The position numbers were made by a program, and so were the translations under genes. Shown here piece by piece: positions 293 to 4,925 of a stretch of DNA of 64,000 nucleotides. The first letter of the stretch is position 1. Each line of letters opens with the position of its first letter. The notes under the pieces were generated by a model. It did no database searches and was not told where the DNA came from. It saw nothing but the letters and a program-made list of their open reading frames with translations. The DNA is from an uncultured Verrucomicrobiae bacterium (lineage in GTDB: Bacteria; Verrucomicrobiota; Verrucomicrobiia; Limisphaerales; Palsa-1400). The stretch spans positions 480,001 through 544,000 of the forward strand of contig CAVPOM010000004.1 of the NCBI GenBank assembly GCA_963707025.1, written 5' to 3'.

Positions 293-2922
293 CTATGGCA
301 CTTCGGGAAGCAGGCCGCTTTCCAGTGGGACGGGCTTTGCCTCCAGGCGCGCGACGGCGGGTTCCAGGCCGGGCCGGGCGGCGGTGAGGGTGATGACGCC
401 GGGAGTCAGGGTCGAACGGATCGCCACGCGGTTGATGCCGCACTCGGTGTCGAGGTACAACTTGTTGACAGAGTTTGTCCGGCCGCTGTTGTAACCGCCG
501 CGCCAAGTCGCCGGGCCGGTTACGCTGAAATCCACGCGGGCGGCGTCGGTCGGGCAGCGGCGGCCCTGGGCGTCCACGGCCTCGATGTCGAAAAAGGCCA
601 CGTCGGAGGCGTCGGCTTGCAGGCCGTTGGGGCCGGTATGCGCAGTGAGCTTCAGGCGCCTGGGTTCGCCGGCGGTTTGGATTTCGTCCTGGGCGGCGGT
701 TTGGCCATTGCGGGTGGCGACGGCCTTGATGGCGCCGGGTTCAAATTTGATTTCCGGGAAGGCAAAAATATAGCCGGTGTCTCCGTAATCAGTGGTTCGG
801 TTGTTGTAGGTGTCCACGAAGTGCAACGGCTGGCGGGCCGCGCCCAAAGATTTGCCGTTGACGAAAAGTTCCACCGCGTCGCAATGACTGGCCGCGACGA
901 AAATGGTTTTCACCGTGTTGGACGGGTAGGTCCAGTGGCCGATAATGTGGATGTCCGGGTCCGGGTTTTGCATGACGCGATAGACATAATAGGCCTGCTT
1001 GGGCAGGCGCACCGCATCCACTTTGCCGCTGACGCGGCAGACTTCGCTGCTGTCCTGGCGGCCGTCGGCGTTGGCATCGGACCAGTAAATGGAGGCGTAG
1101 CCGGACCATTTGGAGTGGGCCGGGTCCGGGTTGGAAATGCGGTTGCTGAAGTAATCGTGGTAGCGGGCGGCGGCGGCCAGGCAGAAAGTCTCCGAGTTCC
1201 AGTGATAAGTGTCTTTGGGGCCGGGCTTGAAGCCGTAGTGGGGAGGGGAGAAGTCGTCCCAGAATCTCCGGGCGGCTTCGTCGCGAAAATCCTCCGTCTC
1301 GATCAGCGGCGCCTTGTCGCGGCGTTCGGCGCTGTAGCCGCGAAAGATGTCGGTTTTCCCGCTCAACCGGTCGGTGCGCGGGTCCTGGCCGATCATCACG
1401 CCGTAGTACTCCGCAATGGGCGTCAGGGCGGTGTTGGCCGCGTTGTCGCTGTTGCCGCGCGTGCCCATGACGCGGCCGCCCTCGGGGTCCCATTGCTGGC
1501 GCAAGGCCACCATCTGCCGCATGTGCTCCGGCGTCACCACCGTGTTGCCCGCTTCCCAGAAAACTATGCTGGGCGTGTTGCGATAGAAGATGATGGAGTC
1601 GCGCATGACTTCCAACCGCTGTTGCCATTGCAGCGCGGCGACATCCGGCGGCAGACGGCGATCCAGAACCGGGTCGCCCTCCTTGTCGCCGGCGGGACAG
1701 ACTTCAATGAGGCCGGCTTTGTCGCAGGCCGAGACATCGGCGCGCTGGGGCGAGATGTGCATCCAGCGGACGTAGTTGGCGTGGGTGCTGCGCACCAGCG
1801 CGGCGTTGAAGTCATGCATCCAATCCGGATAGGCCTGGCCCAGCCCGGCCCAATCGTCCGAGGCCCGTTGCGCGTAGCCGGTGAGCCAGACGAAATGGTC
1901 GTTCAGCCAGACGCCGCCCTGGCCCGCGCCGCCCTTGAATTCAGCCTTGCGAAAGCCGGTGCGCGTCCGGCAAACGTCCACCACTTTGTCGTTGACCGTC
2001 AGGACCGTGTAAACGTCGTAGAGATACGGATCGTTCACATCCCAGAAACGCGCGGCCGCCAGCGGCCCGCCGGCGGCGAGGGTTCCGGTCTGGCCGCCGT
2101 CCAAAGCAGAGGCCTCCCCTTGGAATTTGGCCCGCACCACGCCCCCGGCGTCCACCACCACGGCGGACAAGGCGACCGATTGGGCATCGGCGGATTCATT
2201 GCGCACCTGCGACTGGATGGACAGATCGCAGCTTTTATTGGCGATGGAAAAATGCGACGGAACGATGTAAAGGCCCGTCGTCTTGAGGTTCTCGTAGAGG
2301 GGCAGGGTTTGATAGATCTTGCCCGTCAGGATCAGGCGGATGTCATGATTCAGCCCGCCGTAGTTGGGATTGAAGGCCCGGCCCATCCATTCAAATTCCG
2401 CGCCGGATTCCTCCTTGTAATTGTTGCTGTTGTCCACTTTGACGGCCAGGAGGTTGTCGGCGCCGCCAAAATTCACCAGTTCGGTCAGGTCCAGCCCGCA
2501 GGGGGTGATGCCGTTTTCGTATTTGCCGGCGAATTTGCCGTTGACCCAAAAACGGCCCGCTTGTTTGAGCCCTTCAAACTCCAAAAAAACTTTCCCGCCT
2601 GCCGCCTGGCCGGCAGCTTGAAATGCTTGCGATACCAGGCGATGCCCGCGTAGGGGCGCCGGTCGCCGCCGCTGTGGTCAATGAGGCCCTGGTAAGAGTC
2701 GGTGTCGTTGTAAGTGTGCGGCGCGCTCACGCTCGCCCAGGCCGAGTCGTCGCAATCCATCTGTTGGGCATTGGCGGCATCCTCGCGGATGAATTTCCAG
2801 CCGGCGTTAAAATTATAAATGGCGCGCGGCGAAGGCGGGGGCGCGAAGGGCGGGCTGCCGGCGCCAGCGGCCAGCGCCCCGGCGGCCAGCAACCCGGCGG
2901 CAAGAGCGGTTGCAGTTTTCAT
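293..2922 (-). CDS. Secreted glycoside hydrolase family 2 (beta-galactosidase-like), one frameshift near 2605
   Basis: Signal peptide MKTATALAAGLLAAG and YNFNAGWKF...WYRKHF in ORF 2485..3273. Continues as VFLEFEG...RNTPSIVFWEAGN...KVDAVRLPK in ORF 293..2584. Confidence 0.85.
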
Positions 2923-2986
2923 TTTGTGATATTCTGCAAGGTAAAACGGCGGCAGCACTCGGTCGAGGGAATTATGGGTGTACGCC

Positions 2987-3023
2987 AAAAAGCCCCCGCC
3001 CAGTCTTGCGACTGCGCGGAGGC
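2987..3023 (-). terminator. Intrinsic terminator
   Basis: Minus strand reads GCCTCCGC-G-CAGTC-GCAA-GACTG-G-GCGGGGGC-TTTTT: a long GC stem followed by a U tract. Confidence 0.85.
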
Positions 3024-3840
3024 AAATTGGGGATGGGAGTTCGCCACTCTCTCTTTCCCACGCTGACATTAGGCGCGCCCTCGCGGGGCTGCCAGCTTCC
3101 CGACGCCATTCTCCACGGCAAGCGGAGTCTTCGGCCTCATAGCAGGGCCGTCCAGCGCCTTGCGGTCGCTGAATCATCGAGTGAGGCTTTTCAGCTCGCT
3201 TGGGCTGGTGGTTGCGACACCGGCTTGCGAACCAGGTGAAGACACGCTTGTGACTGCGGTTCCGCGTCTTCACCGTTTAGCGCTGGGTCGGCCGCCGCTT
3301 TTGGCGGCGCGTTGGCCCAGTGCCACGGGTCTCGCCTCTTATCTCTCAGGTTGCATTTCGCTCACAAGCCAGCGGCGCCGTTTTTAACATCGCCGGCCTT
3401 TTGGAAGGTTTTCACGAGACCATGCCTGGGCCTGCGTGTCCTTCCCGGTTGCGAAGACGCCGCTTTGTCCCGCCTTTCGGCGTCTTTACTGGCGACCGGT
3501 TGCAGAGGCCGGCAGAGTCGCTCCTTCCGTGCTGATGCGCAGTAGCAACCGTTTACCCTCTGGGTAACTGCGATTCCCCCAGGCCCGAAACCTGCCTGAG
3601 CTACTTGACCCGGCTCGGAACGGTTTCTCTTTCGTTCCTGGCCGCTCAGTTCCTCTTTCGCGTTACTGACGGCGCGCGAACGCCGCCAGAGGAACTGGTG
3701 AATTCTGCCTCCGGTCTCCGCTCCTTGCGAAGCGGACTTAGAGGGGCTGGGCCAACCAGCCTGACTCAACCTTTCCCCAGTCACCTGGGATTATCTTGGA
3801 TGTTCCGCAACTTTCTTGCGTCCGCCGCGGGCATCCGCGT
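3024..3840 (-). ncRNA. Candidate large structured non-coding RNA (~800-850 nt), family unassigned
   Basis: No credible CDS. Minus-strand hairpins: CCCAG-GTGA-CTGGG (3776-3789), TCCGCTTC-GCAA-GGAGCGGA (3717-3736), CAGTTCCTCT/AGAGGAACTG (3647-3697), CAGGT-TTCGG-GCCTG (3580-3594), CGCC-GAAA-GGCG (3471-3482), GGTGAAGACGCG/CGTGTCTTCACC (3235-3274), CAGCG-A-CC-GCAA-GG-CGCTG (3153-3171), CCC-GCGA-GGG (3078-3087). Ends at a terminator. Confidence 0.7.
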
Positions 3841-3841
3841 T

Positions 3842-3869
3842 CTTTCAAGGAACTGTCCACAAATTAGCA
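3842..3869 (-). promoter_or_regulatory. Putative extended -10 promoter plus boxA-like element for the candidate ncRNA
   Basis: Minus strand TG-C-TAATTT (3869-3861), then AGTTCCTTGAAAG (3854-3842), resembling the rrn boxA type GTTCTTTGAAAA. Confidence 0.45.
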
Positions 3870-4037
3870 CAACTGGCAAAAAAAAGTATCAAATGTTATG
3901 CACAGGTTTGTTCACCGCCGACCCCACTTATTCACCGCCGCCCGCCGCCACAATCCTCAACATTGACGGGCTTTTTTCCGCATTCAGTCAACATAATTCC
4001 GACGCCCGATCCGCCGCGCCCCGCCCGCGGTGGATAA
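3853..4037. promoter_or_regulatory. Cluster of DnaA-box-like 9-mers
   Basis: TTATGCACA 3896-3904 (fits TTATNCACA), TTATTCACC 3928-3936, TTGTTCACC 3908-3916, CTGTCCACA 3853-3861, and reverse TTATCCACC 4029-4037. Confidence 0.45.
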
Positions 4038-4081
4038 GTTTTTTTCGCAAAAACCGCGAAATCCTGCCGGAGCGCCGGCCC

Positions 4082-4312
4082 TCAGGCCGCCGCCGGCGCC
4101 GCCGGCGCCACCGGGGCCGCTGCCGCTGCTGGGGCCGTTGCTGCCGCCGGGGCCGCCGCCGCCGCTGGGGCCGTTGCTGCCGCCGGGGCTGCCGCCGCCA
4201 CTGGCGCTGCAACGGCCTTCTTCGGCGGTTTGGTCTTGGCAGCGGTCTTTTTGCGTTTGATGTGTGCGACGCGCCGCTGGCGCTTGAGGACTTTGTTATA
4301 TTGCTTGCCCAT
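4082..4312 (-). CDS. Small basic protein (76 aa) with Lys/Arg-rich head and Ala/Pro repeat tail
   Basis: MGKQYNKVLKRQRRVAHIKRKKTAAKTKPPKK followed by APAAATAPAAAA x2 (36-bp tandem unit, ~4113-4190). Confidence 0.7.
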   Translation of the reverse strand: MGKQYNKVLKRQRRVAHIKRKKTAAKTKPPKKAVAAPVAAAAPAAATAPAAAAAPAAATAPAAAAAPVAPAAPAAA

Positions 4313-4355: not shown

Positions 4356-4925
4356 ATGAAGTTTTGGCTGCGTTCATTCAATATCTATTTGTTGGCGGCT
4401 GCGGCCGCTCTGGCCAGCGGCTGCGGTTCAAACTTCTTCGGCATGAAAAAGGAATACTCCACTTTGCGCGTTTATTTGGAGGGGTCCCCGGCCGAGTCGT
4501 CCATGGTCTATGTGACGCGCGCCAAGACCCCCATGTACGTCGCCGCCGAGCCGTTCCTCACCGAAGAGGATGTCAGCCGGGCCAAGCTGGTGGACAATCC
4601 GGACGACACCTTCGACATCCAAATCACCTTCAATGATCACGGCGCGCTGGTGCTGGACATGACCACCACCACCAGCCGGGGCAAGCATCTCATCATCTTT
4701 TCGCATTTTCCCCCGAAAGGCTGGAAGCAACCGCAGGACACCGGCGTTGACGCCGTGGCCAAGCCCGAGCCGGGGCAGCCCCGCGTTTCCGGCTGGCTGG
4801 CCGCGCCCTTGATCCGGACCGGCCTGTCCAATGGCTCGCTCAAGTTCACCCCGGACGCCACCCACGAGGAGGCGGAACGGATCGTGCGGGGATTGAACAA
4901 CACGGTGGCGGATGCGGATAAATAG
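4356..4925 (+). CDS. Lipoprotein resembling a stand-alone SecDF P1 head subdomain
   Basis: Lipobox LASGC. FLTEEDVSRAKLV...IQITFNDHGALVLDMTTTTSRGKHLIIF...AAPLIR resembles the SecD P1 head pattern. Confidence 0.6.
   Translation: MKFWLRSFNIYLLAAAAALASGCGSNFFGMKKEYSTLRVYLEGSPAESSMVYVTRAKTPMYVAAEPFLTEEDVSRAKLVDNPDDTFDIQITFNDHGALVLDMTTTTSRGKHLIIFSHFPPKGWKQPQDTGVDAVAKPEPGQPRVSGWLAAPLIRTGLSNGSLKFTPDATHEEAERIVRGLNNTVADADK

Follow-up and report, generated by a model that had tools for sequence, protein, structure and literature searches.

A full-length MISL RNA gene (RF03079) in an uncultured bacterium of the Verrucomicrobiota, with a conserved leader and terminator beyond the Rfam model

What is encoded by a stretch of bacterial DNA that folds densely as RNA and holds no credible protein? 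The question is raised by positions 2987 to 3869 of the DNA analysed here, a stretch of 64,000 nt that is referred to throughout as the window. A sequence-only reading had proposed an independently transcribed giant RNA, either a divergent GOLLD-like member or an undescribed class, and had named cmscan against Rfam beforehand as a check. That search returned a strong match, which confirmed the RNA and removed its novelty. The match is to RF03079 (MISL RNA), at 3036-3796 on the minus strand, with 590.1 bits and an E-value of 1e-178, where the gathering score of the family is 274.6 bits. The model is covered end to end (positions 1-751 of 751) and the match is not truncated. When the whole window was scanned at Rfam gathering thresholds, the MISL RNA was the sole match, and it is present in one copy in the 6.96-Mb, 18-contig assembly. 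The locus belongs to an already catalogued family, as a full-length MISL member and not as a new class. It is very probably a single-copy chromosomal gene for the MISL RNA, which is a large structured non-coding RNA found in Verrucomicrobiota.

The region from 2700 to 4200 was also scanned permissively, with relaxed filters and E-values up to 1. The models for GOLLD, ROOL, OLE and introns gave no match in that region under those settings, and neither did the raiA motif RNA. The scan added two noise matches, one of 22 bits to an sRNA model over the terminator (E 0.84) and one to an RNaseP-T fragment (17.9 bits, E 0.33). There is next to no chance that the locus represents a giant ornate RNA of a new class, or that it is a diverged relative of GOLLD, ROOL or OLE. 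The similar size class, the wealth of GNRA loops and the many helices do fit such a proposal, but the full-length match of 590 bits is to another, existing Rfam family, and those three RNAs stay unmatched even at E-values up to 1. A GOLLD-like identity is further opposed by the single chromosomal copy without phage neighbours, given that integrase domains occur in just 2 of 55 flanking ORFs, both from two closely similar loci. The locus was also considered as a divergent RNase P RNA, tmRNA, 6S RNA or SRP RNA. This was rejected, given that canonical genes for RNase P RNA, tmRNA, two 6S RNAs and SRP RNA lie elsewhere in the same genome and that the RNaseP-T fragment is all that the region yields.

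The taxonomic range of MISL RNA in Rfam is the Verrucomicrobiota. The family reportedly goes back to a survey published in 2017 by Weinberg and coworkers. The term 'MISL' is absent from the main text of Weinberg et al. 2017, the supplement of which may carry the original description. In the Ribonanza preprint, MISL RNA from Rfam serves as an example for SHAPE and chemical mapping, and the accession RF03079 occurs once in a genome paper that is apparently unrelated. A search of one collection of papers found no functional study of MISL RNA.

The features that make up the locus, all on the minus strand, are the following.

3036 to 3796, minus strand: core of the MISL RNA, RF03079 model positions 1 to 751 (cmscan, 590.1 bits; covariation in 29 homologues).
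2987 to 3023, minus strand: intrinsic terminator, a 14-bp stem with one G-G mismatch, a GCAA loop and T5 at 2991-2987 (sequence and covariation).
3798 to 3836, minus strand: leader hairpin L2, in which GGAUG...CAUCC closes an inner stem-loop, located 5' of the Rfam model (leader folding).
3839 to 3853, minus strand: leader hairpin L1, GUUC-CUUGAAA-GAAC, which bears the boxA-like word GTTCCTTGAAAG at 3853-3842 (minimum-energy folds).
3861 to 3869, minus strand: putative extended -10 element, TG-c-TAATTT (read from the sequence, with TGnTAnnnT in the same place in relatives).
About 3884 to 3890, minus strand: putative weak -35 element, GATACT/ATACTT (read from the sequence).

The fold of the core was examined by aligning 29 MISL loci from related genomes, from -65 to +52 around the Rfam model, with MAFFT. 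The mean column identity of this alignment is 78%. RNAalifold, run without the Rfam structure as input, returned 215 pairs in 36 helices, and at least one compensatory change is found in 108 of the 215 pairs. Shuffled alignments give 43±4 such pairs, with none of 500 shuffles reaching 108, and slid partners give 33-53. The share of cells that are paired is 96.5%, as compared to 90.2% with shuffled partners and 36-45% with slid partners. The helices agree with the Rfam consensus structure where the two were compared by eye. Because the homologues are related and some may be in the Rfam alignment itself, this covariation confirms the MISL fold and adds no new evidence for it.

The collection of homologues and the covariation check had likewise been suggested in the sequence-only reading, and most of what that reading said of the fold was borne out. 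The minus strand of 2987-3869 does hold the dense helices that it described. Its 10-bp stem at 3647-3697 and its 12-bp stem at 3235-3274 each coincide with helices of the Rfam MISL consensus and with RNAalifold helices, as do its GNRA-closed hairpins (GUGA, several GCAA, GAAA and GCGA). In contrast, its remark that the stem at 3280-3323 'prefers plus' carries no weight, as this is a covarying helix of the minus-strand MISL RNA (helices 24 and 25). Folding of 2987-3857 is more stable than that of shuffled sequences on both strands, with z-scores of -4.9 for the minus strand and -4.7 for the plus strand and with none of 20 shuffles as good in either case. Since both strands fold beyond chance, energy alone does not pick the strand; it is picked by the Rfam match, the terminator and the promoter.

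Two tertiary contacts were considered. A kissing loop between the loop of L1 (AUUGAAA) and a conserved UUUCRG hairpin loop was rejected by comparison to MISL copies found in a more distant family within the same class, in which the L1 loop is CUUGAUA and the other loop stays UUUCG. The one loop changes while its partner is constant, and therefore there is no compensation. A candidate loop-to-bulge pseudoknot, UUCGCG (alignment columns 204-209) with CGCGAA (columns 223-228), is 91.4% paired and makes a weak case, with double changes in just two pairs, a number that 83 of 500 shuffles reach.

That the locus codes for a protein, or carries a small ORF, has virtually no probability. The window does hold a GTG-started frame of 140 aa at 3362-3784 on the minus strand. 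However, no conserved ORF was found inside the MISL RNA among the 29 homologues, the longest frames of which differ in place, frame and length. Open frames are not kept at a mean column identity of 78%, and the substitutions are of the compensatory kind that is typical of RNA helices. The earlier observation that the segment lacks a credible protein stands.

Conservation runs past the Rfam model on both sides, for about 59 nt at the 5' side and for about 49 nt, terminator included, at the 3' side. The conserved two-hairpin leader and the terminator beyond the model imply a primary transcript of about 870 nt, roughly from 3857 to 2988 on the minus strand. At the 5' side, the start of transcription is predicted near 3857 from the promoter sequence, and the arrangement of the listed elements suggests that the MISL RNA is transcribed from its own extended -10 promoter. 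The -35 element is weak, and a consensus scanner called no sigma-70 site at this promoter.

The leader occupies 3797-3855, the 59 nt 5' of the Rfam model, and holds two conserved hairpins. L1 has the form GUUC-loop-GA[A/G]C across loci, with a conserved 7-nt loop, and 25 of 27 leaders form it in their minimum-energy fold. A pair in its stem (helix 2) alternates between U-G in 15 sequences and U-A in 13. The longer L2 is present in all 27 of the folded leaders, with stem sequences that vary between genomes; MAFFT did not align L2 in register, and pair counts are given only for the other helices. At the 3' side, the terminator helix (helix 35) is 98.6% paired, with compensatory changes in 11 of 12 pairs among the 29 homologues, and is followed by a T-run in most of them. 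The stem has one G-G mismatch, and a simple promoter and terminator scanner did not report the terminator. Both leader hairpins and the terminator are kept in five MISL copies of the more distant family.

The boundary elements lie where the sequence-only reading had placed them, with TG-n-TAATTT at 3869-3861, the boxA-like word at 3853-3842, the terminator stem at 3023-2992 and T5 at 2991-2987. Its unit of 2987-3869 is essentially right, given the extended -10 element, the conserved leader and the covarying terminator. Its picture of an independently transcribed, structured RNA of about 870 nt, with a boxA-like leader and a terminator of its own, is supported, the promoter being deduced from its motif. 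Only its choice between a divergent GOLLD-like member and an undescribed class fell, to the full-length RF03079 match. After transcription from this promoter, the RNA would be released at the intrinsic terminator.

The boxA-like word is a fixed part of the leader. GTTC[ACT]TTGAAA is found in all 28 of the loci from the same order that have upstream flank, and in all five MISL loci of the distant family its place is taken by GTTCCTTGATA. The single rRNA operon of the host carries three similar words, GCTCATTGAAAA in the 16S leader and GTTCTTTAACAA and GTTCTTTGACAA in the 16S-23S spacer, and similar boxA words are carried by the rRNA operons of four other genomes. The MISL consensus and the word of the host rRNA leader are alike at 10 of 12 positions; a degenerate boxA pattern, which was composed after the MISL word was known, hits 44 places in the genome. 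The core TCATTGAAA is common to the MISL word, GTTC[A/C/T]TTGAAAG, and to the rRNA leader boxA of this order, and the MISL word lies about 5-15 nt from the predicted start of a long untranslated RNA, as in rRNA leaders. There are also differences. The MISL word is half paired within hairpin L1, whereas the usual boxA is single-stranded, and no boxB or boxC was identified in the MISL leader. In the distant family, the MISL word is CCTTGATA and the rRNA words are CTTTGAAA, such that both have changed, to different letters. By analogy to rRNA operons, the word at the 5' end could load a Nus antitermination complex, which would shield the long untranslated transcript from Rho and help it to fold; this is a reasonable conjecture, held at somewhat less than even confidence.

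A second set of elements lies 5' of the promoter. The consensus of the DnaA box is TTATNCACA, and the following words resemble it when read in reverse complement or on the reverse strand.

3896 to 3935, minus strand: three direct repeats, GTGAATAA (3935-3928), GTGAACAA (3915-3908) and GTGCATAA (3903-3896), the reverse complements of which resemble DnaA boxes.
4029 to 4037, minus strand: fourth DnaA-box-like word, TTATCCACC, at -241 and in the orientation opposite to the three repeats (reverse-strand match).

The GTGNAYAA repeats occur at fixed distances of -140, -120 and -108 from the start of the MISL model. Among the 28 loci of the same order, at least one strict box is present in all and at least two are present in 22. 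The boxes are degenerate in the distant family, with 0-1 strict boxes in the five loci. The tandem arrangement GTGNAYAA-N3-5-GTGNAYAA occurs six times genome-wide, each time just 5' of promoter-like hexamers, where a rough estimate of the number expected by chance is below one. These tandem sites lie at the MISL RNA, the mraZ-rsmH operon, a ketoacyl-synthase gene, a CBM48-like small ORF and one long leader; the ketoacyl-synthase site contributes two overlapping matches from three tandem boxes. Clusters of at least three boxes number two in the 7-Mb genome, at MISL and at the ketoacyl-synthase site. No Rfam RNA was found downstream of the other four tandem-box sites.

The boxes were also considered as a general promoter feature of stable RNAs. 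This was rejected, as GTGNAHAA is absent 5' of the genes for RNase P RNA, tmRNA, 6S RNA and SRP RNA, and one word is present in the 420 nt 5' of the 16S gene. The simplest reading of the GTGNAYAA repeats is a putative binding array for a regulator, for which DnaA or MraZ-type repeat binding are candidates. As such, the fixed repeats may be the sites of a transcription factor that tunes MISL expression; that the factor is DnaA is possible and rather doubtful. It is very improbable that the box cluster marks oriC and that the MISL RNA is an origin-proximal transcript. Such a proposal draws on the four DnaA-box-like words within about 140 bp 5' of the promoter, but along the 908-kb contig the cumulative GC skew does not turn at 483 kb, and dnaA lies on a different contig (C8) with just single boxes 5' of it. 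In addition, the same tandem boxes are found 5' of mraZ-rsmH, the ketoacyl-synthase gene and other genes, which is regulon-like and not origin-like. No cluster of more than two strict DnaA boxes in 400 bp was found genome-wide.

The regulator-array reading concerns what lies upstream of the RNA; genes on either side of it were compared across loci. The 55 flanking ORFs include Pfam matches to GH2, PALP, integrase, ThrRS, ECF sigma, helicase, Asn synthase, FadL and others, and BLAST clustering leaves 39 of the 55 as singletons. Such varied neighbour genes argue both against a role in cis and against a mobile element. In the window, a gene of the GH2 family lies on the MISL strand and starts 65 nt past the T-run, and a GH2 gene is also downstream of MISL in one relative (L015). 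From this placement the MISL RNA might be read as a leader or riboswitch-like element that acts in cis to control the glycoside hydrolase gene downstream. However, the RNA is closed by a conserved, covarying intrinsic terminator, and the downstream genes differ in almost every genome, many of them on the opposite strand, such that cis control is extremely unlikely.

Upstream, a pair of genes recurs in 12 of the 27 loci with enough upstream flank. In the window they are located as follows.

About 4356 to 4925, plus strand: divergent lipoprotein gene with a weak SecDF-P1-head-like match, a recurrent neighbour.
4312 to 4082, minus strand: small, very basic ORF on the MISL strand, a recurrent neighbour.

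The small basic ORF is 30-76 aa long, with the N-terminus MGKQYNKV.KR.RR.A..KRKK and variable Ala/Pro tails, and searches of Pfam and NCBIfam found no family for it. It lies on the same strand as MISL, at most 4.5 kb upstream, in 16 of the 28 genomes with a MISL match over the cut-off. As a MISL-specific partner by phyletic profile it was rejected, since 39 of 41 genomes carry it, among them 11 of the 12 that lack a MISL match. In the latter, no MISL was found beside the small ORF in the 11 regions examined. The small ORF is widespread regardless of MISL, and therefore co-occurrence gives no support to a partnership and the link is one of synteny only.

The distribution of MISL was determined at several depths. 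A match is present in 29 of 41 genomes of the same order, the host counted, and is over the cut-off in 28 of the 41. Among the same-order genomes that are at least 90% complete, MISL is matched in 19 of 28 and not found in 9, and therefore it is dispensable in some lineages. A wider sample of the phylum gave MISL in 8 of 150 other genomes, six of them in a single family, of which eight genomes were in the sample, and one in another class, and none of 14 control genomes has it. A 26-nt word from the 5' end of MISL was found at 85 places in species-representative genomes. Among the 80 word matches listed, 69 are titled Verrucomicrobiota, Verrucomicrobiia/-ae, Limisphaerales, Pedosphaera or 'subdivision 3', and the other 11 carry different metagenome-bin labels. 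These 11 labels are suspected to be binning or labelling errors.

What such an RNA might do can be approached by comparison to the catalogued family and to other large RNAs. The present locus agrees with RF03079 in its full-model match, in the same helices that covary and in homologues titled Verrucomicrobiota. It differs in that the conserved RNA is longer than the model, with the two-hairpin leader at its 5' side and the terminator at its 3' side. Rfam gives the family the type 'Gene; sRNA', while the size, the complexity of the fold and the apparent abundance would look more like those of a housekeeping structured RNA. GOLLD, ROOL and OLE are likewise large, many-helix bacterial non-coding RNAs with transcription units of their own. 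MISL differs from them in the lack of any sequence or structure match, in its single chromosomal copy without phage context and in its phylum. A cryo-EM preprint reports that GOLLD, ROOL and OLE form oligomers, and it does not mention MISL (10.1101/2024.12.08.627333).

As a finding, the locus is ordinary, in that it adds one more copy to a catalogued family. As a family, MISL is a covarying RNA with 36 helices and a length of about 750-870 nt that is widespread in one of the main lineages of soil and peat bacteria. It is about an even call that MISL is an abundant folded RNA with a role in trans, most likely as a ribonucleoprotein core or ribozyme-like machine and not as a base-pairing regulator. 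A more elaborate proposal, which is a long shot, is that MISL serves the Verrucomicrobiota of soil and peat as an RNA machine of housekeeping grade. The transcript would be protected by Nus and boxA like rRNA and folded co-transcriptionally, and its output would be tied to the state of replication or the cell cycle through the DnaA-type boxes that it has in common with the promoter of the mraZ division operon. Its role would be that of a ribozyme or of a scaffold in an undescribed ribonucleoprotein, for which the upstream basic protein of about 30 residues would be a candidate partner. Testable leads on MISL are offered by the hairpins of the leader with their rRNA-like boxA word, by the boxes at fixed upstream positions and by the small basic ORF that recurs upstream.

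The raiA motif RNA of C. difficile is described as a structured non-coding RNA with an abundance like that of rRNA and tRNA (PMC12968392). MISL resembles it by functional analogy, as an 'abundant orphan RNA'. The two differ in that the raiA motif RNA is unrelated, much smaller and from other phyla.

Public sequencing runs were searched for the presence of MISL in environmental RNA with positions 2900-4000 of the window, and 24 runs were listed. Of these, 20 contain 20-26% of the sampled words; each of the 20 is a metatranscriptome, and they come from 16 studies of peat, soil, sediment and wetland. For four runs, each of a different study, the contigs were placed at an identity of at least 85%, as follows.

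Run X1: 28,037 contigs placed, from 4.36 million records.
Run X3: 42,437 contigs placed, from 2.25 million records.
Run X5: 9,784 contigs placed, from 3.43 million records.
Run X9: 7,635 contigs placed, from 5.01 million records.

In the four runs, the contigs cover 3020-3811, with slight cover up to 3855, and the flanks at 2800-3019 and 3856-4100 are nearly empty. The placed sequences are the MISL RNAs of relatives, and contigs cannot show level, strand, starts or ends. As the flanks are not conserved and the contigs carry neither ends nor strand, the contig cover does not map the transcript. Several contigs from three of the runs end at 3795, an edge that in contigs looks the same whether it comes from a processed 5' end or from graph branching at the limit of conservation. 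Expression in the organism itself was considered as the source of these matches and rejected, given the 20-26% of sampled words and the uncovered flanks of the host, which point to relatives, with the host not evidently present. Many variants of the MISL family are plentiful in environmental RNA libraries, and MISL seems to rank with the heavily represented non-rRNA sequences there.

A recurrent neighbor of MISL, the large structured non-coding RNA encoded on the minus strand, is a small ORF upstream of it on the same strand, flanked in turn by a divergent gene; a split gene lies on the other side of the RNA.

Window 4082-4312, minus strand: small, very basic, conserved ORF.
Window ~4356-4925, plus strand: lipoprotein-like gene, its signal peptide carrying a lipobox (...ALASGC).
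Window 293-2922, minus strand: GH2-family glycoside hydrolase gene downstream of MISL, with a break near 2485-2592.

The small basic ORF is single-copy in 39 of the 41 genomes of the order, and MISL often lies directly downstream of it. Its counterparts at MISL loci of related genomes (L002, L003, L005, L007-L010, L022 and L026-L028) share the N-terminus MGKQYNKV.KR.RR.A..KRKK, followed by variable tails rich in Ala and Pro, and the length across loci ranges from 30 to 76 aa. Searches of Pfam and NCBIfam returned no family for the ORF, which may encode an unannotated small protein. The lipoprotein-like gene, which is divergent to both the small basic ORF and MISL, is kept at the same place in 12 of 27 loci; its match to the SecDF P1-head domain is weak and falls under the cut-off.

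The GH2 gene is read in two frames, 2488-2922 and 296-2584, each with GH2 domains, and the frame shifts near a run of seven T residues at ~2585-2592. Either the gene is a pseudogene with a frameshift, or the break is a sequencing error in the homopolymer.

Tandem GTGAAYAA repeats, which resemble DnaA boxes, also occur outside the window, directly upstream of promoter-like hexamers, at four positions on three contigs of the source genome.

C18:339334
C18:677948
C7:83982
C5:539012

The sites lie at mraZ-rsmH, a ketoacyl-ACP-synthase gene (leader ~450 nt), a further gene (leader ~470 nt) and a CBM48-like ORF of 91 aa. No Rfam RNAs were found in the leaders of these four non-MISL sites. Together they look like a small regulon with sites in common with the MISL promoter.

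Within MISL, the hairpin loop UUCGCG is complementary to CGCGAA, which lies in the 3' strand of an internal loop in the stem of the same hairpin.

Alignment columns 204-209 with 223-228 (window ~3676-3681 with 3658-3663), minus strand: UUCGCG loop and CGCGAA partner.

In the alignment of 29 homologues the pairing is 91% kept, with two G-C to A-U double changes but also five A-C mismatches; support is weak for reading it as a pseudoknot or as an alternative to the hairpin's pairing.

One related genome (G009) carries, beside the full gene, a second MISL piece of 76 nt (L030, C1:3154355-3154430) that lies ~205 kb from the full gene; its 40-bit match is confined to the model's 3' end (positions 674-750). 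In the source genome, two 6S RNA genes score above the Rfam cut-off, at C7:411512-411695 and C10:97630-97811.
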